From: Bacteroidia bacterium
GTDB taxonomy: Bacteria > Bacteroidota > Bacteroidia > Flavobacteriales > Flavobacteriaceae
Assembly: GCA_030428865.1 (NCBI GenBank)
Contig: JAUIEK010000009.1
Location: 4,876-68,875, forward strand
DNA length: 64,000 nt
Reading direction: 5' to 3'
Shown one piece after another: positions 10,211-18,662 of this stretch (positions are counted from its first letter, which is position 1; every line of letters begins with the position of its first letter). A program made the position numbers and the translations under genes. The notes below the pieces were generated by a model that was given only the letters and a program-made list of their open reading frames with translations, searched no databases and had not been told where the DNA came from.

Positions 10211-11562
10211 AAATTCATTTTATTGCAATTGGTGGTAGTGCCATGCATAACTTAGCGTTGGCATTGCAAAGTAAAGGCTATCAAATTACAGGAAGTGATG
10301 ATACTATTCATGAACCCTCAAAAAGTAGATTACAAAAGAAAGGATTACTACCTGAATCTTTTGGTTGGTATCCTGATAAAATTACTGCAGATTTAGATGC
10401 TGTTATTCTAGGAATGCATGCCAAATCTGATAACCCAGAACTACTTAAAGCACAAAAGTTAGGACTGAAAATTTACTCGTATCCTGAATTTTTATTTGAA
10501 CAATCTAAAGATAAAACACGTGTAGTTATTGGAGGTTCTCATGGGAAAACAACTATTACTTCTATGATTTTGCATGTGATGCAGTATCACGAAAGAGAAG
10601 TCGATTTTATGGTTGGAGCGCAATTAGATGGTTTTGATACAATGGTTCATCTTACAGAAAAAAATGAGTTCATGGTTTTAGAAGGTGATGAATATTTGAG
10701 TTCACCAATAGATAGACGCCCTAAGTTTCATTTATACCAACCAAATATTGCTTTAATTAGCGGAATTGCATGGGATCATATTAACGTATTTCCTACTTAT
10801 GAAAACTATGTAGAACAATTTAAAATCTTTGTTGATTCATTAACAAATGGTGGAATTTTAGTTTATAATGAAGAAGATGAAGAAGTAAAACAGTTAGTAG
10901 AGAAATCAGAAAATCCGATCAAAAAATATCCTTATAAAACACCTAGCCACAAAATAGAAAATGGTATTACTTATCTTGAAACTTCAGAAGGAAATTTGCC
11001 TCTAGAGATTTTTGGAGAACACAATCTGCAGAATTTAGCAGGAGCAAAATGGATATGCCAGCATATGGGTGTAGATGAAGATGATTTCTATGAAGCTATA
11101 GCTTCTTTTAAAGGAGCTAATAAGCGTCTTGAAAAGATTGCAGAGAATTCACTAACCACAATTTTTAAAGATTTTGCGCACAGTCCCAGTAAAGTAATTG
11201 CTACAACTAGAGCAATAAAAGAGCAATATTCGAATAGAAAAGTAATTGCTTGTTTAGAATTACATACCTACAGTAGTTTAAACGCTTCCTTTTTGCAGGA
11301 ATATAAAGGAGCTTTGGACACTGCAGATGAAGCAATTGTTTTTTACTCGCCAGATGCTGTAGCTATTAAGCAATTAGAAGAGGTTAGCAGAGATCAAATT
11401 TTAAAGGCATTTACAAGAGAAGATTTAGAAGTGTTTATTAATCCAAAAGAATTTGAAAATTTTTTGTTGAATCAGTCTTTAGAAAATAGTGTTCTGTTGT
11501 TAATGAGCTCAGGAAATTATGGAGGATTAAACTTTGAGAAACTTATTTCTTTGGTTTTATAA
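10207..11562 (+). CDS. mpl: UDP-N-acetylmuramate:L-alanyl-gamma-D-glutamyl-meso-diaminopimelate ligase (Mur ligase family, Mpl-type)
   Basis: N-terminus MKIHFIAIGGSAMHNLALAL..GSDD and Mur ligase P-loop GGSHGKTTITSM. 451 aa. Confidence 0.7.
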   Translation: MKIHFIAIGGSAMHNLALALQSKGYQITGSDDTIHEPSKSRLQKKGLLPESFGWYPDKITADLDAVILGMHAKSDNPELLKAQKLGLKIYSYPEFLFEQSKDKTRVVIGGSHGKTTITSMILHVMQYHEREVDFMVGAQLDGFDTMVHLTEKNEFMVLEGDEYLSSPIDRRPKFHLYQPNIALISGIAWDHINVFPTYENYVEQFKIFVDSLTNGGILVYNEEDEEVKQLVEKSENPIKKYPYKTPSHKIENGITYLETSEGNLPLEIFGEHNLQNLAGAKWICQHMGVDEDDFYEAIASFKGANKRLEKIAENSLTTIFKDFAHSPSKVIATTRAIKEQYSNRKVIACLELHTYSSLNASFLQEYKGALDTADEAIVFYSPDAVAIKQLEEVSRDQILKAFTREDLEVFINPKEFENFLLNQSLENSVLLLMSSGNYGGLNFEKLISLVL

Positions 11563-12646
11563 TTCTTAACTGAATTAGTTTTTCTCTTCTCCAGTTTTTA
11601 TCCATAAAACGGCGATACATCCAAATTCTATTTTCTTTTCTAGAAAATGACTGACGTATAAATTTAACTCTCTTTTTAATAGCTATCTTTCTTTTCCAAG
11701 TCTTAAAGTACTTTGCACGGAATTTATCATCGTGTAGTATTCTGTTGTAAATTTCTAAGTATTTTTTAGTTTCATCTTTTTCTTGAAATAACAAACTATT
11801 AGAGTTGAAAGTTTGGTTGCATACGGCTAAAAAGTTATTAATAGGATTGAATAATTTGTCAAAATGTTCAATAGCTTTTAATGAATCTGTTTTTTGACTT
11901 AACAAGAACACATCATATCCGTTTCGTAAAGACATGTTATTAAAATACTGCCCATCGTCATTAACTTGTTTTGCTAAAATGGCTAAACACAATTGATTAG
12001 CATAACTCATAAAAGTAATTCCATCACTCGAAATAGTGTTTTGAGAAACAGTATCAAAATTGAATTCCGTTTCATATCCTTCAATCAATAATTCTTTATG
12101 AATCTCTACGGCTGCAATTTTAGAAGAATGATGGAGCCTTGGTAAGTGTTTGAATTGTGGAAAATGATAACTTTCTTTTGAGACATTTTGATAGTTATTA
12201 CTTACTAGTAATTCAGCTGTTTTTTCATACTTCTTTTCAGCGACGATAAAATCAATATCACCCACCATTCGCTCACTAATATCATTATAAATTCCTTGTA
12301 AAATAAGTGCTGAACCCTTAACGAAAATAGGATTGATATTATGTTGTTTTAGTAATAAATTGATTTCCTTTACTTGCCCAATGATTTGCATATTTCTATC
12401 ACGATTTAGTGAAGAAATATGTTCCATGTATGCCACAAGTTCGTTAGGTAAGAGAGATAAAAGATTCTCTTTTTTTAGGTTATGATACAGTGCAGGGAAA
12501 ACGAAGTGTCCCGTACTAACTTTAACTATGTTATCCCAATCAACTTTATCTTCTTTTATGTTTTGCTTGATCCAATCAAGATTCTCTTTTTCATAAGAAA
12601 TAGTTAAGCATCTAGCTATAAAAAACAAGGCTTCTTTATAAGTCAT
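11543..12646 (-). CDS. Pol-beta-superfamily nucleotidyltransferase (uncharacterised NTP_transf_5-like family)
   Basis: The hG[GS]-x(n)-D-h-D-h signature is present as KGSALILQGIYNDISERMVGDIDFIV. Overall it resembles the nucleotidyltransferases found beside HPr-kinase-like genes in peptide-modification loci. The start overlaps the upstream gene by 11 nt. Confidence 0.65.
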   Translation of the reverse strand: MTYKEALFFIARCLTISYEKENLDWIKQNIKEDKVDWDNIVKVSTGHFVFPALYHNLKKENLLSLLPNELVAYMEHISSLNRDRNMQIIGQVKEINLLLKQHNINPIFVKGSALILQGIYNDISERMVGDIDFIVAEKKYEKTAELLVSNNYQNVSKESYHFPQFKHLPRLHHSSKIAAVEIHKELLIEGYETEFNFDTVSQNTISSDGITFMSYANQLCLAILAKQVNDDGQYFNNMSLRNGYDVFLLSQKTDSLKAIEHFDKLFNPINNFLAVCNQTFNSNSLLFQEKDETKKYLEIYNRILHDDKFRAKYFKTWKRKIAIKKRVKFIRQSFSRKENRIWMYRRFMDKNWRREKLIQLRIIKPKK

Positions 12647-13766
12647 TCGAGAATAATTTAGATACTAAATCAATCATTTCTTGATTATCCGAATAAGTTA
12701 AGGAATAACAGGTAGTTGATTGAAACCAATCTAAAAAAGTTTCTACGTTTTCGGATTCTTTAGATATCCAAGAATCAGGCAGAAGTTTATGAAAAGCATC
12801 TACTTTAGAAATTTTTTTAAGTGCGGTCTTACTCTCTTTAGCGTATTTAATAAAAACTAAGATGCTACAATTTTCAGTTTTTTTATAGTTCTGATGACTA
12901 GGAGGTAAGTAACGAACAGTTTTGTCAAGAGGAGCAAAATAGTACTCTTTTTCTGTTTTTATTTGAGGAAAATAAGTAGAAAGTAAATTCCAGCTATTTT
13001 TCTTTAAACTAATAGCTGATGGAAAGGTGTAGACTTTTTGGTCATTTCCCATGGGGACAAAATCATCAGCTATGCAGTGAAAATTGTGTGCCTGTAATAG
13101 GGCTAAAGAAGTACTCTTCCCATCTCCAGAATCTCCTAAAAATAATATTGATTGTTCTCCATTACTTACTGCAGAGGCATGAAAAACGCCTAGCCATTCA
13201 TCTTCTGGTTTGTTGTAGATTTCTTCTACAACAAGCATATTTACTTTTCCTTGTAGAAAATGTATATCTCTTCTTTTCCAAACGTCATAAAATTTTTCAT
13301 TTCTATATAAAAACGTATCCTCTTTTTTAGAGAAAAGCTGAAAATGTACATGAATAGCTTCTTGTTTTTCCACTTCTAAATAAGAAAATTTAGGGTGGAT
13401 TAATTCGAACTCGAAATAAGATTGATATTCAAATAAAAAAACCGTGTTATTAATTCTGTAATATTTTTTGTATTCATAATCCCGATCACTCTCATAATTT
13501 TTTAAATGATGTTTCTTTTCAGGTTGAAATTTTATATTGGGCTCTACAATATTTTTGTTGACGTCTTTTATAAAGCTGATAGCATCCTCAACAGGTATAT
13601 TTAATTCATTTGCTAGTGATTTTCCTATAAAATCAATTTCTTTTTTTTGAATTAAAGCGATTACAATTTCAGCAGTTTTATTTTCTAAAACAAGATATTG
13701 ATTAGCGGGAGCCATCCAAAGAACAGTTTTATCTTCTATAGGTTTTGTAAGAAATTGAATGCTCAT
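12636..13766 (-). CDS. PqqD-like (RRE) domain fused to an HPr kinase/phosphorylase-like P-loop kinase domain
   Basis: The N-terminal ~75 aa (VLWMAPANQYLVLENKTAEIVIALIQKKEIDFIGKSLANELNIPVEDAISFIKDV) follow the PqqD/RRE pattern. The C-terminal half has the HprK-type Walker A and flanks: FHASAVSNGEQSILFLGDSGDGKSTSLALLQAHNFHCIADDFV. Confidence 0.7.
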   Translation of the reverse strand: MSIQFLTKPIEDKTVLWMAPANQYLVLENKTAEIVIALIQKKEIDFIGKSLANELNIPVEDAISFIKDVNKNIVEPNIKFQPEKKHHLKNYESDRDYEYKKYYRINNTVFLFEYQSYFEFELIHPKFSYLEVEKQEAIHVHFQLFSKKEDTFLYRNEKFYDVWKRRDIHFLQGKVNMLVVEEIYNKPEDEWLGVFHASAVSNGEQSILFLGDSGDGKSTSLALLQAHNFHCIADDFVPMGNDQKVYTFPSAISLKKNSWNLLSTYFPQIKTEKEYYFAPLDKTVRYLPPSHQNYKKTENCSILVFIKYAKESKTALKKISKVDAFHKLLPDSWISKESENVETFLDWFQSTTCYSLTYSDNQEMIDLVSKLFSNDL

Positions 13767-13775
13767 AATTTGTTT

Positions 13776-14996
13776 TTAAAATTTTTTACCTGTAAATAAG
13801 GACTTTATTTTTAACCAATACACTTGGAATATTCGTTTAACAATTTTATTGAATTTAAAATTAAATAATGTATTAATTAAATCATCAATTGTTGTTTTTT
13901 GATGAAAAAATCGAATTCTATTTTCAATTTGTTCATCCGTATATTTACTATACATTCGCTTGCTAGAGACCTCAGAAATTTGCCACTTTAACAAGTTATT
14001 TTTACGCCATCTTTTTCGATATTTTTGGAAATCGGCACTTCCATTTGATAGAAACTGATCAATATATTCACAAGCCATTTCTGCACTTTGCATAGCATAT
14101 CGAATACCTTCACCACCTAGTGGGTTTACAGCAGAAATTGCATCACCAACCGCAACTACTCGATCTTTGTAAAAAGTATCTTGTATACTAGGGCTATAAC
14201 GCAACGTTCCGCCATGTACATCTAGTAGTTTGTAATTTTCTGTTTTTATATACTCTTTAATAATCTTTTCAGTAAGCTTTTTAGTGGTTTTAGTTGTTTT
14301 CTCCTGATCTTTTGAAGCGATATGAATTTTTCCTGAACCAACTTTTAGAACCTTATTTTCCATTGGAAAAATCCATGAATAACCTTTTAGAGCCCATTTA
14401 TGTCCTAGAAAAAAGACCAATCTATCTTTATACTGATCATAAGTTTCTTGATTGACCTCAATTTGATATTCTATTCCGCTTCCTAAAACCATTTCGGGCT
14501 GATCATTTTTAGAGTCGTACATTACTTTTCGCAAAGGGCCTGTTGCGTCAACTACGAGTTTAGATTTGAATTGTATGTTTTTTGATGTTTCGCTATCAAC
14601 TAATTCAACAATAACGCCATTACTTAGTACCTCTTTCTTAACATACCGATGTCCCATTAAAACTGTAGCTCCTTTTTCTTGAGCTTCATCAGCTAAAAAT
14701 TGTCGCAATCTGCCAAAATCTAAAACAGCACCTTTTGTTTCATTTCCTTTCCATATATATTCTTTTTCTGAACATTGAATAGAAAGATCTTTCCAATACG
14801 AACCAATGACATTATCAGGTAAATTAAATTCTTTTAACGGAGCCAACGTCATACCCGCACTAGAGAAGTTATTGTCTTGAAAACTAGCGTAACGTTCTAC
14901 TAATAATACAGAATATCCTTTTTTACTTAAGTTTCTAGCTGTTTGACCTCCAGCAGGCCCACCTCCTATGATAACAACATCATACTCTACAGTCAT
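13776..14996 (-). CDS. FAD-dependent oxidoreductase (geranylgeranyl reductase / group A flavoprotein family)
   Basis: Dinucleotide-binding motif YDVVIIGGGPAGG at the N-terminus. GYSWIFPM and the GDAISAVNPLGGEGI motif are also present. I place the start at MTVEYD; the longest ORF runs to 15047. Confidence 0.8.
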   Translation of the reverse strand: MTVEYDVVIIGGGPAGGQTARNLSKKGYSVLLVERYASFQDNNFSSAGMTLAPLKEFNLPDNVIGSYWKDLSIQCSEKEYIWKGNETKGAVLDFGRLRQFLADEAQEKGATVLMGHRYVKKEVLSNGVIVELVDSETSKNIQFKSKLVVDATGPLRKVMYDSKNDQPEMVLGSGIEYQIEVNQETYDQYKDRLVFFLGHKWALKGYSWIFPMENKVLKVGSGKIHIASKDQEKTTKTTKKLTEKIIKEYIKTENYKLLDVHGGTLRYSPSIQDTFYKDRVVAVGDAISAVNPLGGEGIRYAMQSAEMACEYIDQFLSNGSADFQKYRKRWRKNNLLKWQISEVSSKRMYSKYTDEQIENRIRFFHQKTTIDDLINTLFNFKFNKIVKRIFQVYWLKIKSLFTGKKF

Positions 14997-15061
14997 TAAT
15001 ACTTTAATTTCTAAAGTGAGTAAAGATAGTTTTTCAAGACGATTCAATAAAAATTAAAAAT

Positions 15062-15097
15062 AAAAAAAACTCACTTTTATAAAGTGAGTTTTTTTTT
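15062..15097 (-). terminator. intrinsic terminator/attenuator hairpin between small peptide gene 1 and the flavoenzyme gene
   Basis: 8-bp stem, ctcacttt (15070-15077) with aaagtgag (15081-15088). An A8 run and a T9 run flank it, so the stem is followed by a U-run on either strand. Confidence 0.6.
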
Positions 15098-15121: not shown

Positions 15122-15277
15122 TCAGAAACCTCCCCCTTGCCCTGATCCTGCTTGTGCGGTCTTAGGATTTAATAAAAAATAGGTTCCTAATGCAGTTAAA
15201 GCGGCGTATTTTCCATAATTACCTATTTTTTTTATGGCATCCTTACGAGTGATCTCGTTTTTTTGTGTATTTTTCAT
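15122..15277 (-). CDS. small precursor-like peptide 1 (51 aa): MKNTQKNEITRKDAIKKIGNYGKYAALTALGTYFLLNPKTAQAGSGQGGGF
   Basis: Translated by hand; it falls below the ORF-track length cutoff. ATG at 15275-15277, TGA at 15122-15124. It is a paralog of the ORF at 15502-15672, and the differences between the two copies are mostly synonymous. Confidence 0.6.
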   Translation of the reverse strand: MKNTQKNEITRKDAIKKIGNYGKYAALTALGTYFLLNPKTAQAGSGQGGGF

Positions 15278-15501
15278 GTTTTAATAGGCTTTAATTAAAA
15301 TTTTACTTGTTAAAAAAACATTCATAGTCGAGTTATAAAAACACTTAACTATTGTATTAGATTCCTAACTTTGCTACTGTTTTAAAGTTTGCTTTTTATT
15401 TTATCACAACTATAGGAATTTTCCATGATTATTTGATAAAATCCCTACAACGGTACAAATATAATTAAATTATTTAATATTTGATAAACTATTAAGTGTT
15501 T

Positions 15502-15672
15502 TTAGAAACCACTTCCTAGTCCCGAGGGAGTGGAACCCGCCTGAGCTGTTTTAGGGTTTAATAATAGATAAGTTCCTAAAGCGGTTAAGGTTGCATATTT
15601 TCCGTAGTTTCCTATTTTTTTTAAAGCTTCTTTACGAGTTATATCTTTGTTAGATTTTGATTGATCTTTCAT
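15502..15672 (-). CDS. small precursor-like peptide 2 (56 aa): MKDQSKSNKDITRKEALKKIGNYGKYATLTALGTYLLLNPKTAQAGSTPSGLGSGF
   Basis: Translated by hand. ATG at 15670-15672, TAA at 15502-15504. The start lies about 18 nt downstream of the stop of the 990-aa gene. It shares a 37-residue block with peptide 1. Confidence 0.6.
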   Translation of the reverse strand: MKDQSKSNKDITRKEALKKIGNYGKYATLTALGTYLLLNPKTAQAGSTPSGLGSGF

Positions 15673-15689
15673 AATAATATTAAATGTTG

Positions 15690-18662
15690 TTATTCAATAA
15701 TAATTTTCTTGTTCACAGACTTACCAGCAGTATCTAACTTTATAATGTAAATACCTGTATCTATGTTAGGAATACTTATATCATTTACAGAATTGCCTTC
15801 AAAAGAAATATTAAATACTTGTTGTCCAATAGTATTATACAAGCTGATATTAGTCGTTCCATTTTGTAAACCAACAACTCTTATGTTATTACTGCTGGTT
15901 TGGTAAATACTTAAATTATTTGTATCTAAATCATCCCCTGAACTTAAAACTCCTTGGTTTACGTGAAGATAAAAGCGACCGATACCATTTGTGTTTACAT
16001 TTATATTAGTATCATATTTTTCAACTTCGTTTAAATTGATAAACGTTCCTGCTTCTTTATCTTCTAGATATATATTATATCCATTAGGAAGGTTTGCTAT
16101 ATTTATAGAAAAGCTAATTTTGCCAGAATTATTAACATCAACACCTATAGGAATTATCATATTCTCATAATCAGAGTTTGGAAGCGATTGAATACCTAAC
16201 CTCTTTCCTTCTCCATCAGCAACAGCATGTGTGTAGAATGAAAAACTTTCATTTACACCAGAAAAGATAGAACTATCGTATCCATTATCAAATCCTGTTG
16301 TTGCTCCGTCAATAAAATAAATCTTAGTACTTCTTGTTATAGATCCATTTGTGGCAATCAATTCAATTTTTGCTTTTTCGGTTTCAGTATTATTTCTTTG
16401 AAATGAATCTGTTTGATGTGACTGCATTGCCTCAGTTATACTTAATGTATTTGCTCCATTGGAGTTCACAAAAAAACCTTGGCCTGGTGCAATATAGAAT
16501 GCTTCTGATGCTTGATTTATTTGATCGTAAGAAGAGGTTGATTGATTCCAGCACCAAAGAGTAGCTTCGGTAAGTAAATCAGAATCAATATCGTTTAATC
16601 TTAGGATATTATTTATGCCATCAGCACTATCATTAACAGCAATGTAAGATGGGTAAGGATTTCCTATGGCATTAAATCCGTTTATGTTTGAGGTAATGGA
16701 GATACCAATATCTGAAGTAGGGATAGTTCCTGTAAAAGAAATATTACCAGCTGAAGCTAATTTTACAGCATAACCTGTTCCAGAATTTACTGCTCCAGTA
16801 GAAGCTGCTGTAGAGTAATTCCAGTTAGTTCCATCATTAGCATAAGTAGAAATACCAATGTTACTACCAGTACCTGTATCAAAAGTATGATTTGCAATTA
16901 AATCTTCTATTGTTTCTCCAACAACAGGAGAAGAAACCAAATACCAGTTATTTGTAGCTAATACTCTTGTATATGTTACATTACCAGATGCAGTACCAGA
17001 AACTCTTAAAGAACCTCCACTAGCAATAGATAAGCCATCTGGTTCTGTTATCATAATGTCGTTGACTTCTGCACCAGTAGAAGCGCTAATAATTGGAGCA
17101 TTTATAACATCTGGAATAATCGCGTTTAAAGAACTCGTTGGTATACCATTGCTCCAGTTGCCTAAAGTTGCCCAATCTGTACCACTTGAACCCGTCCAAG
17201 TTGTTGCTAAAGAGATGTCAAAATCTTCGATTCTCCAAAGTTCTGTTGATCCACCACCTGTTCCCGTTGAAGTATAACGAAAAGCAAAAACCACAGCAGT
17301 ACCAGCAATACCAGATACATCTACATTACCAGAACTTGTACTTGTTTGTGAATCTGATGCTGGCCAAGTAGGACTTAAACTACTATTCCAACTAGTTGTT
17401 GATGGATCTCCTGTATAATTTGTTGTGTATAAAAATTCAATTTGTGGGCTAGAAGCATCAGCAAATCGAGTCCAACTGTTAAACGTTAAAACCTCACCTG
17501 TTTGAGCATCCATGTTAAATGATGGGCTGATTAAATAATCATCAGCAGCGCCTGAAGAATCAAAAGCATTCGCTTCAAAGTATCCGCTACCACAAGTCCA
17601 TTCCAGTTCTGCGCCTACAGTAGCTACTGTCCAATTTTGAGTGTTACAATCAGAAAAATCTTCATTGTAAGGAATAGAAGCTATAGGAAGCTCATCATCA
17701 GTTATTGTTACTGTATGTTGACTAGTTCCTAAATCTGCAGTGCCAGAAGAAACAGTAATGTTTAGAACTACTGTTTCATTATCACTATCAGCATCATTAT
17801 TGATATCTAGAGAGATGTTTTGAGTTCCGTTTGCATTGAAAACTAAAGAAGTTGTATTTAAAGTATAATCTCCACCTTCAGCAGTACTAGAACCATCAAC
17901 CGTAATACTTATAGTAACTGGAGCATCATGATTTGTAAATGTAACTGGGATATTTGCGCTAAAAGTGATATCTGTTTCGTTTTCAAAACTTGAGGCTGAA
18001 TCAAAGCTCACGGTAGGATTAGAAGCATCTGTAACAACAAGTGCTGTGGTATCGAAAGTTTGACCTGACCCAGAAGTAGTCCATTGAGCTGAATTATAAA
18101 TATTAATCAAATGCCCTGTTTTATTATTGCTAGTTCTTACTCCTGAATAAACACCATTGTCTCCGCCAAAATAAACAGCATTAGTACCTAAAGTTAACCC
18201 TGTACCTGTTAATGTTCCAGCATCACCACTATCTTCCCCCGCAAACCCTAAAATAGTATATGTTCCTGTATTGTATACGTTAGTAGAGGTTTGATAAATA
18301 TAAACACCATCACCACTATTACTTAAAGTGATATTACCTGCTCTTTGGGTTACAACTCCTCCATTCGACATAGTATCAGAATTGGCATCGTAAGTAAAAA
18401 CAGTGCCTGCAGTTATTGAAGGTGTTACCCACTCGTAAAAACCTTCTCCAGAGTTGAAAGATGAGCCATTCCATTCATCATCCGTGATGAATACTGATTG
18501 ACCAGAGGGTATGTCTGCTAATGCAACTAGAAGGATTTCTTCATTATCTACACCCACACCAATGATTGCTATATCTCCAGCAGATAAAGTTTGAGCATTT
18601 AAGTTGATGTTGCATAAAAACATCAATGGTAGTACGAATTTTAAAAAGTAATTTTTTTTCAT
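15690..18662 (-). CDS. large secreted surface protein with a T9SS C-terminal sorting domain
   Basis: Signal peptide ending NAQT. Calx-beta-like segment (GGDYTLNTTSLVFNANGTQNISLDINNDADSDNETVVLNI). Ser/Thr/Gly/Asn-rich beta-repeat regions. The C-terminal ~80 aa (ISLYNTIGQQV...GIYIIKLDTAGKSVNKKIIIE) are typical of Por/T9SS CTDs. Confidence 0.85.
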   Translation of the reverse strand: MKKNYFLKFVLPLMFLCNINLNAQTLSAGDIAIIGVGVDNEEILLVALADIPSGQSVFITDDEWNGSSFNSGEGFYEWVTPSITAGTVFTYDANSDTMSNGGVVTQRAGNITLSNSGDGVYIYQTSTNVYNTGTYTILGFAGEDSGDAGTLTGTGLTLGTNAVYFGGDNGVYSGVRTSNNKTGHLINIYNSAQWTTSGSGQTFDTTALVVTDASNPTVSFDSASSFENETDITFSANIPVTFTNHDAPVTISITVDGSSTAEGGDYTLNTTSLVFNANGTQNISLDINNDADSDNETVVLNITVSSGTADLGTSQHTVTITDDELPIASIPYNEDFSDCNTQNWTVATVGAELEWTCGSGYFEANAFDSSGAADDYLISPSFNMDAQTGEVLTFNSWTRFADASSPQIEFLYTTNYTGDPSTTSWNSSLSPTWPASDSQTSTSSGNVDVSGIAGTAVVFAFRYTSTGTGGGSTELWRIEDFDISLATTWTGSSGTDWATLGNWSNGIPTSSLNAIIPDVINAPIISASTGAEVNDIMITEPDGLSIASGGSLRVSGTASGNVTYTRVLATNNWYLVSSPVVGETIEDLIANHTFDTGTGSNIGISTYANDGTNWNYSTAASTGAVNSGTGYAVKLASAGNISFTGTIPTSDIGISITSNINGFNAIGNPYPSYIAVNDSADGINNILRLNDIDSDLLTEATLWCWNQSTSSYDQINQASEAFYIAPGQGFFVNSNGANTLSITEAMQSHQTDSFQRNNTETEKAKIELIATNGSITRSTKIYFIDGATTGFDNGYDSSIFSGVNESFSFYTHAVADGEGKRLGIQSLPNSDYENMIIPIGVDVNNSGKISFSINIANLPNGYNIYLEDKEAGTFINLNEVEKYDTNINVNTNGIGRFYLHVNQGVLSSGDDLDTNNLSIYQTSSNNIRVVGLQNGTTNISLYNTIGQQVFNISFEGNSVNDISIPNIDTGIYIIKLDTAGKSVNKKIIIE

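Follow-up and report, generated by a model that had tools for sequence, protein, structure and literature searches.

Two small genes on the minus strand of contig JAUIEK010000009.1, which was assembled from a member of the Flavobacteriaceae, encode the peptides A1 and A2. They are best explained as precursors of an undescribed family of ribosomally synthesised and modified peptides (RiPPs) that appears to be specific to Flavobacteriaceae and resembles the LPPs of Bacillota. The stretch of DNA analysed here, called the window below, comprises 64,000 nucleotides of this contig. Both precursors start with a leader that looks like an export signal, and comparison of homologous sequences lends this view partial support. 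Processing of a signal peptidase I type together with export in an N-in/C-out orientation would be the best explanation for A1 and A2, and we hold it with about even confidence.

Two precursors and their family

The gene for A2 (56 amino acids) is located at 15502..15672 and the gene for A1 (51 amino acids) at 15122..15277, both on the minus strand. Both are open reading frames (ORFs) with homologues, and A2 was in addition assigned with the site statistics of the family. A2 can be divided into a basic n-region, a hydrophobic h-region, a c-region and a core (MKDQSKSNKDITRKEALKKIGNYGKY / ATLTALGTYLLL / NPKTAQA / GSTPSGLGSGF); its leader comprises residues 1-45 (15538-15672) with an n-region of 26 and an h-region of 12 amino acids, and the core at 15505-15537 is followed by the stop codon at 15502-15504. 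A1 is organised in the same way (MKNTQKNEITRKDAIKKIGNYGKY / AALTALGTYFLL / NPKTAQA / GSGQGGGF), with a leader of residues 1-43 (15149-15277), the core at 15125-15148 and the stop codon at 15122-15124. A sequence-only reading of this DNA had described two ORFs that share a conserved block; both were confirmed, and the alignment of A1 with A2 gave 78% identity. A third paralogue of 62 amino acids is encoded by this genome on a separate contig (C7:353850-354005; L003 1456-1644, minus strand) and contains ...LLNPKMSQA / SSCPPNTEGCPGGQGDGFND. It has two cysteines, and the G-F it contains is not terminal.

A sequence search detected 1257 clusters (90% identity) of homologous peptides; marine Flavobacteriaceae, among them Polaribacter and Tenacibaculum, contribute most of them. 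A profile search yielded 380 representatives at 50% identity. The block shared by A1 and A2 is thus not due to chance, since it recurs in the third paralogue, in these clusters and in the representatives found with the profile. Searches of Pfam and NCBIfam up to an E value of 10 revealed no family for the peptides.

The peptides occur together with a kinase. In the window this is an HprK-like kinase of 376 amino acids fused to an RRE domain (12636..13766, minus strand; weak match to TIGR04352 and fold of the AlphaFold2 (AF2) model). We investigated 301 genomes of Flavobacteriaceae, comprising a single genome per genus for 300 genera and the genome of the window: the kinase was found in 25, the peptide in 26 and both in 23 of them, and the other 275 have neither. 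Genomes with only the kinase or only the peptide are incomplete assemblies or have the genes at contig ends. The full-length RRE-kinase was confined to Flavobacteriaceae when 400 genomes sampled throughout the phylum were searched, and a search of a collection of genome contigs with the kinase sequence returned a single weak and partial match, in a cyanobacterial genome. For the comparison of loci, 21 kinase loci were used, the one in the window and 20 from other genera; in 18 of these 20 a peptide gene is located 2-200 nucleotides upstream of the kinase gene. Over the 21 loci the order is one or more genes of the c1 type, the peptide gene or genes, the RRE-kinase, a PF14907 transferase and, in 10 loci, a gene for a barrel-like protein of 186 amino acids. 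The c1 protein of the window (990 amino acids; 15690..18662, minus strand) is a cargo protein of the type IX secretion system (T9SS), and its gene ends 17 nucleotides before the start of A2.

The AF2 model of the kinase (pLDDT 92) shows that residues 2-79 adopt the fold of an RRE, made of three strands and three helices. This part superposes on the lasso B1 RRE 6jx3_B with a Z score of 9.0 and a root-mean-square deviation of 2.6 Å over 76 residues, on 5v1u_A with a Z score of 8.7 and on PqqD with a Z score of 7.2 (all with VIA-align); 6jx3_B and 5v1u_A are lasso B1 RREs that were solved with their leader peptides bound. Pfam does not detect PqqD in the N-terminus of the kinase, the RRE being visible by its fold alone. 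Residues 190-376 are a P-loop kinase that matches HprK/P (1ko7_B, Z score 12.4 with VIA-align), and a Foldseek search with the whole model retrieved mostly PEPCK and HprK. As judged from the modelled fold, the RRE domain invoked by the sequence-only reading is indeed present, which gives the assumed reading of the leader by an RRE a sound structural basis. The kinase gene is followed by the gene for a PF14907 (NTP_transf_5) nucleotidyltransferase in 19/21 loci; in the window it is located at 11543..12646 on the minus strand (Pfam, E value 3.7e-36), its start overlapping the stop of the kinase gene.

The residue that this kinase would modify can be proposed from the cores. Counted from the predicted cut after A-Q-A, position +2 is serine in all 265 members, and by analogy with Ser3 of the LPPs (PMC13381572) Ser+2 is the likely target of the kinase. 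The proposal that core serines are plausible kinase targets thus fits, and of the Gly-Ser pair described earlier as conserved the serine has been kept and the glycine has not, position +1 being occupied by Q, A, S, G and others. A similar split was observed at the other end of the core. The terminal G-F is present in 115/120 close homologues but only in 3/24 peptides of kinase-anchored loci from other genera and in 13/121 representatives at 50% identity; it is, on this sequence evidence, a trait of a subclade and not of the family. An aromatic residue among the last three positions is found in 19 of the same 24 peptides from other genera. Conservation among homologues had been put forward as a check of the reading, and here the A-x-A position has been retained while the terminal G-F has not been retained family-wide.

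Most cores of the family are 8-13 amino acids long. That of A1 is atypical, since it lacks the proline present at core position 3-4 in most relatives, and it contains neither aspartate nor glutamate. Relatives with long cores hold 2, 2, 6, 6, 8 or 8 cysteines, even numbers as expected for disulfide-bonded domains outside the cytoplasm. In one subfamily (P0201, P0209, P0218 and P0237) the same leader is followed by cores of 60-95 amino acids with 6 or 8 cysteines and lysine-rich tails; from their sequences, these look more like small secreted disulfide-bonded proteins than like short peptides. One genome has four tandem matches to the peptide model (L047, 10680-12456), and the two that were inspected have long cores rich in Gly, Pro, Lys and Asn, with for example a repeated KPGKP.

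The leader as a candidate export signal

The consensus of the leader is ITRKEA.KK.G..KYAALTA.GT...LNP.KAQA. The net charge of the n-region is +5 in A1 and A2 and +4.6 on average in 149 members; in every one of these members the h-region consists of exactly 12 uncharged residues, and the cores have a mean net charge of -1.2, which is zero or negative in 98%. Such a distribution (positive n-region, neutral h-region, negative core) follows the positive-inside pattern and predicts an N-in/C-out orientation. The c-region has the form N-P-x-x-A-Q-A with an invariant proline at position -6. The signal-like n/h/c layout proposed from A1 and A2 therefore appears to be conserved throughout the family.

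The same holds for the proposed resemblance of A-Q-A to a signal peptidase I site. Position -3 is A, S, T, G or V in 263/265 members and position -1 is A, S or G in 245/265 (92%), so that the -3/-1 rule is followed in 92%; position -2 is glutamine in 255/265 (96%). Where the site is lost, the loss is usually compensated: of the 20 members in which -1 is none of these residues, 13 carry L or A at -5 (15 if methionine is included), creating a new site [LA]-x-A|Q two residues upstream, compared with 10 of the 245 others (Fisher p 2e-11, not corrected for phylogeny). These exceptions are spread over several leader subtypes and do not form a single supported clade in the kinase tree, which is too weakly resolved for counting how often the shifted site arose. 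A shift of this kind is predicted by the -3/-1 rule of signal peptidase I and not by a pure kinase-recognition motif, and the covariation favours A-Q-A| as the default cut with A|Q as a fallback. The genome encodes one LepB; a SipW-type peptidase (TIGR02228) was not found in the window's own genome. Further support comes from the partner gene that constantly precedes the peptide gene, a link that the sequence-only reading had not drawn: its product is a secreted T9SS protein.

Based on these data and on known chemistry, the following pathway can be proposed. In the cytoplasm, the RRE domain fused to the kinase would bind the conserved leader (I-T-R-K-E-A-[IL]-K-K-[IM]-G ... K-Y-A-A-L-T-A-x-G-T), and the kinase would phosphorylate the invariant Ser+2, a group that the PF14907 transferase may extend; the phosphorylation and the extension are modelled on the chemistry of LPPs and paeninodin. 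As suggested by its anatomy and by the comparative data, the same leader would then insert N-in/C-out into the inner membrane via the general Sec pathway or YidC, and the housekeeping signal peptidase I, LepB, would cleave it. The cut would most likely occur after A-Q-A, releasing GSGQGGGF and GSTPSGLGSGF, for which [M+H]+ values of 666.284 and 966.453 were calculated, with n x 79.966 added for a phosphate series. Alternatively, a cut two residues earlier (A|Q-A) would give products with a pyroglutamyl N-terminus, pyroGlu-AGSGQGGGF (calculated [M+H]+ 848.353) and pyroGlu-AGSTPSGLGSGF (1148.522). Outside the cytoplasm, the short, acidic or neutral, Pro/Gly-rich product would probably act together with the T9SS surface protein encoded upstream. 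More specifically, the leader might be read in turn, with the RRE of the kinase holding it like a Tat chaperone before Sec and signal peptidase take over, and the exported phosphopeptide, perhaps nucleotidylated or glycosylated, might be a ligand, cofactor or attachment partner of c1; this fuller scheme is tentative, and we consider it a one-in-several possibility.

A number of observations weigh against export. As a control, the three peptides of this genome were compared with the signal peptides of its 18 T9SS cargo proteins, which must use Sec, and by this comparison the leaders are atypical. Their n-region, with 23-25 amino acids, is far longer than the mostly 2-9 amino acids of the cargo signals, and the mean Kyte-Doolittle hydrophobicity over 12 residues is 1.57-1.69, compared with 1.9-2.95 in 17/18 cargo signals (the remaining one, with 1.32, probably has a wrongly assigned start). 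The c-region of the leader contains a lysine. The Q-rule of Bacteroidetes places glutamine at +1 of the cut site (PMC5837995). By eye, glutamine follows the apparent cut in about 16/18 of the cargo proteins, and it follows the cut site in 10/10 c3 proteins, a further control, whereas A1 and A2 have glycine at +1. Over the family, glutamine stands at +1 of A-Q-A| in only 31%; a cut at A|Q-A would place it there in 96%, yet most members would in that case have K or Q at position -3. No acceptable cut site exists in three or four members (K-K-A-Q-[DE]). The cargo proteins of this genome mostly begin with MKK and follow the Q-rule closely.

The degree of conservation is also unusual for a signal peptide. 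From I-T-R to A-Q-A the leader is 81% identical over ten genera; the signal peptide of the barrel-like neighbour is 35% identical in the same ten genera. Within the h-region T, A, G and T are near-invariant, including the polar T and G. Together this indicates a second constraint, namely recognition by a protein, for which the RRE is the obvious candidate, and the hydrophobic stretch may exist mainly for this recognition. In addition, we know of no precedent for a phosphorylated and possibly further extended peptide that crosses the membrane via Sec. Peptides with bulky modifications are expected to be poor Sec substrates according to the authors of the bufferin study (PMC11626156).

The strongest competing explanation takes this conservation at face value: the leader would be a recognition sequence for the RRE and the enzymes only, with the hydrophobic stretch docking as a strand or helix on the RRE-kinase and A-Q-x-x-S serving as recognition motif of the kinase, and a protease and a transporter encoded elsewhere would remove the leader and export the product. 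The difference in identity to a true signal peptide of the same genomes, the near-invariant h-region residues and the hydrophobicity below that of the genome's Sec signals all speak for it, as does the glutamine at -2 in 96%, a residue for which signal peptidase I has no requirement. Many RiPP clusters likewise lack a protease and transporter of their own, and two proteins with a C39 domain are encoded elsewhere in the genome; C39 peptidases, however, cut after a Gly-Gly motif, which these leaders do not have. Moreover, neither a protease nor a pump co-occurs in any of the 21 loci, and recognition alone does not explain why changes at -1 and -5 restore a -3/-1 site, why exactly 12 uncharged residues and a positive-inside asymmetry are maintained, or why long cores have even numbers of cysteines and the peptides are constantly paired with T9SS cargo. 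We regard recognition alone as a serious but minority possibility, with somewhat better than a one-in-four chance of being correct.

Alternatively, the peptides could be small membrane proteins that stay uncleaved with N-in/C-out orientation and present the modified tail in the periplasm, for example as an anchor, a primer or a partner of c1. This would agree with the positive-inside charge pattern and with the close pairing with c1, which includes orphan copies, and a low hydrophobicity would do no harm if a partner protein holds the peptide. Membrane-spanning helices need about 19-20 residues, however, and a stretch of 12 uncharged residues between the lysine and Asn-Pro is too short to form a stable one. 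The small-x-small site, the proline at -6 and the compensatory shifts point to cleavage instead, making an uncleaved form rather improbable.

That the leader is a working signal of the twin-arginine translocation (Tat) pathway, with R-K in place of R-R and carrying the already modified peptide, is very improbable, and the Tat-like interpretation of the n-region given in the sequence-only reading is not supported: in 281 members the conserved arginine is followed by K in 242, by R in only 6 and by a non-basic residue (E, N, G, Q, I, T, A, S, D or V) in 33, the F position of the Tat motif is occupied by alanine, a clade with long leaders has a spacer of 8 residues with two lysines between motif and h-region, and none of 25 members matched a Tat signal family in Pfam or NCBIfam at E values up to 10 (one gave a weak match to TIGR02811, E 0.035). 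What had made Tat attractive is that T-R-K-E-A-[IL]-K-K-[IM]-G resembles the genome's own Tat signal S-R-R-D-F-L-K-Y-M-G, that the hydrophobicity of the leaders lies between the values of the two unambiguous Tat signals of the genome (1.30 and 1.79), that the c-region has a basic residue and that the genome encodes TatC (211 bits). In addition, Tat tolerates cargo that has matured in the cytoplasm. With R-R in 6/281 members and no match to a Tat model, membership in the Tat signals was rejected.

Relation to known peptide systems

The closest known system is that of the LPPs of Bacillota (Popov et al., Nat Commun 2026), in which an RRE, an HprK-like kinase that polyphosphorylates Ser3 of the core and a PF14907-type transferase act together, a SipW-like signal peptidase I (LppS) is the leader peptidase and an MsbA-like protein is the exporter (PMC13381572). 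The flavobacterial cassette shares the RRE, the HprK-like kinase and the PF14907-type NTP transferase, as well as a linear precursor without a lasso cyclase. The modified serine is close to the junction of leader and core in both (Ser3 in LPPs, the putative target Ser+2 here), and the LPP leader is cut by an enzyme of the signal peptidase I type, for which a site is predicted here; in LPPs this processing favours the phosphorylated precursor. There are also clear differences. The RRE is fused to the kinase here and discrete in LPPs, the motif YxxPxVLxHQxIxFETxxS (P-x9-F-x-[T/A]) of the LPP leader is replaced by the n/h/c layout, most cores have 8-13 amino acids compared with 45 in the studied LPP, and the host belongs to the Bacteroidota, with the cassette tied to a T9SS cargo gene. 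Neither a dedicated SipW-like peptidase nor an MsbA-like exporter is conserved in the 21 loci, and indeed no peptidase, transporter or ABC pump of any kind is conserved in the cassette. The absence of peptidase and pump together with a signal-like leader is as expected if the general Sec pathway and LepB had taken over both LPP functions.

Export of a RiPP via Sec is not new in principle, since it has been shown for bufferins, and the lipoprotein pathway has been shown for DAG-RiPPs. Bufferins are MNIO-modified RiPPs that are exported via Sec and cleaved by signal peptidase (PNAS 2024, PMC11626156). They resemble the proposed pathway in that modification in the cytoplasm is guided by an RRE-type domain and Sec and signal peptidase replace a protease and pump of their own; unlike here, the chemistry is the unrelated formation of thiooxazoles on cysteines by MNIO enzymes, the cores are folded mini-proteins of 60-70 amino acids and the signal peptide is dispensable for modification, whereas no part of the flavobacterial precursor is conserved better than its leader. 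No MNIO (DUF692), DUF2063 partner or DUF2282-type precursor was matched among the proteins of the cluster in Pfam and NCBIfam. DAG-RiPPs use the lipoprotein pathway and were first characterised in Chryseobacterium (PNAS 2026, PMC13056109). Their precursors likewise co-opt a general signal peptide pathway for maturation, but with a lipobox, signal peptidase II, lipidation and MNIO enzymes, and a lipobox cysteine is not present in the peptides described here.

Lasso peptides of the paeninodin type have the same pair of HprK-like kinase and nucleotidyltransferase, and the RRE has the lasso B1 fold; a cyclase and a B2 protease are missing here and the putative modified serine is near the N-terminus of the core instead of the C-terminus. 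A lasso peptide was rejected, since cyclase and B2 protease are absent from the cassette and the A1 core has no acidic acceptor at position 7-9. Tat signals and their chaperones, the redox enzyme maturation proteins, offer a parallel of another kind: their n-region is likewise long and basic and has a motif like T-R-x-x-x-[IL]-K, the h-region is weakly hydrophobic, the c-region contains a basic residue, and a cytoplasmic protein may hold the signal until maturation is complete. They differ in the twin arginine, which the leaders lack, and in the Tat models, which the leaders do not match. What is new is the combination of a signal-like leader read by an RRE with kinase/transferase chemistry, very short cores and a link to T9SS.

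If the export reading is correct, the kinase/nucleotidyltransferase peptide chemistry of Bacillota would extend to marine Bacteroidota, where a reduced version has the leader in place of protease and ABC pump. It would be the third, chemically distinct ribosomal natural product to use the general secretion pathway, after bufferins and DAG-RiPPs, and the first whose precursor is most conserved in a signal-like leader that an RRE reads as well. One question that follows is whether Sec or YidC would accept a tail that carries phosphate. As a rule for genome mining, one could look for an RRE fusion beside a small ORF whose conserved leader is signal-like, where protease and pump are missing. In Polaribacter, Tenacibaculum and other abundant marine genera, a modified peptide would be linked to T9SS cargo, and if c1 is the partner of the exported peptide, such a pair of peptide and adhesin would be new to both T9SS and RiPP biology.

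The cassette and its neighbours

The portion of c1 that is conserved beside peptide genes elsewhere consists of its C-terminal ~440 amino acids, a beta-sandwich module followed by the T9SS C-terminal domain (CTD). The AF2 model of this module is a string of beta-sandwich domains with the T9SS CTD at the end, and a fold search with it retrieved only generic Ig/FN3-like adhesin stalks and the T9SS CTD. The N-terminal parts of the c1 proteins are variable, and the gaps between c1 and peptide genes range from -10 to ~300 nucleotides. Cargo paralogues of the c1 type often occur two or three in tandem per genome. Orphan copies of the peptide gene, which are the third paralogue of this genome and copies in three other genomes, are located directly downstream of a gene with a c1 module in 5/7 loci. 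The third paralogue has a c1-type T9SS gene upstream and a gene with a Fib_succ_major domain downstream, with no enzymes nearby.

The gene for the 186-amino-acid protein follows the nucleotidyltransferase gene in 10/21 loci (e.g. L040, 7932-8492) and has no counterpart in the window. The protein carries a Sec signal of typical form and weakly matches outer-membrane beta-barrel models (TIGR04565, E 0.013); from its sequence, it could be the route by which the peptide exits through the outer membrane.

Transcription of the minus strand would pass through c1, A2, A1, a hairpin, a flavoenzyme gene, the kinase gene and the PF14907 nucleotidyltransferase gene in this order. The hairpin (15062..15096, minus strand) has a stem of 16 pairs followed by a T-run and is located 25 nucleotides past the stop of A1; it precedes the remaining genes of the locus and has the appearance of a terminator or attenuator. 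Four metatranscriptome runs of one study contained only fragments, on contigs of low depth, from a strain of ~96-97% identity, and neither the transcription level nor the transcript ends of the locus could be read from them. One of these contigs (~97% identical) aligns to 15533-15739 and to 15076-15094, with ~56 unaligned letters between the two parts. Given this gap in a single low-depth contig, the related strain may lack the A1 copy.

The flavoenzyme, a member of the geranylgeranyl reductase family (TIGR02032, 157.7 bits), is encoded at 13776..14996 on the minus strand; translation probably starts at the ATG at 14996 and not at the TTG at 15047 given in the ORF list. It is the only copy in the genome and is present at 1/21 kinase loci, that is in the window only, and absent from the other 20. 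Orthologues with 50-63% identity in four congeners are located between a DnaJ-like gene and ileS, and no peptide, kinase or c1 gene lies within 8 kb of them. The earlier suggestion that the flavoenzyme acts on the terminal aromatic residue does not agree with this distribution, and tailoring of the terminal phenylalanine was rejected as a feature of the family because of the single locus and the housekeeping context of the orthologues. The gene is probably a passenger, a relocated gene of housekeeping type, or at most a recent recruit, as its genomic distribution suggests. In this lineage it seemingly moved into the peptide locus along with the extra copy A1 and the hairpin.

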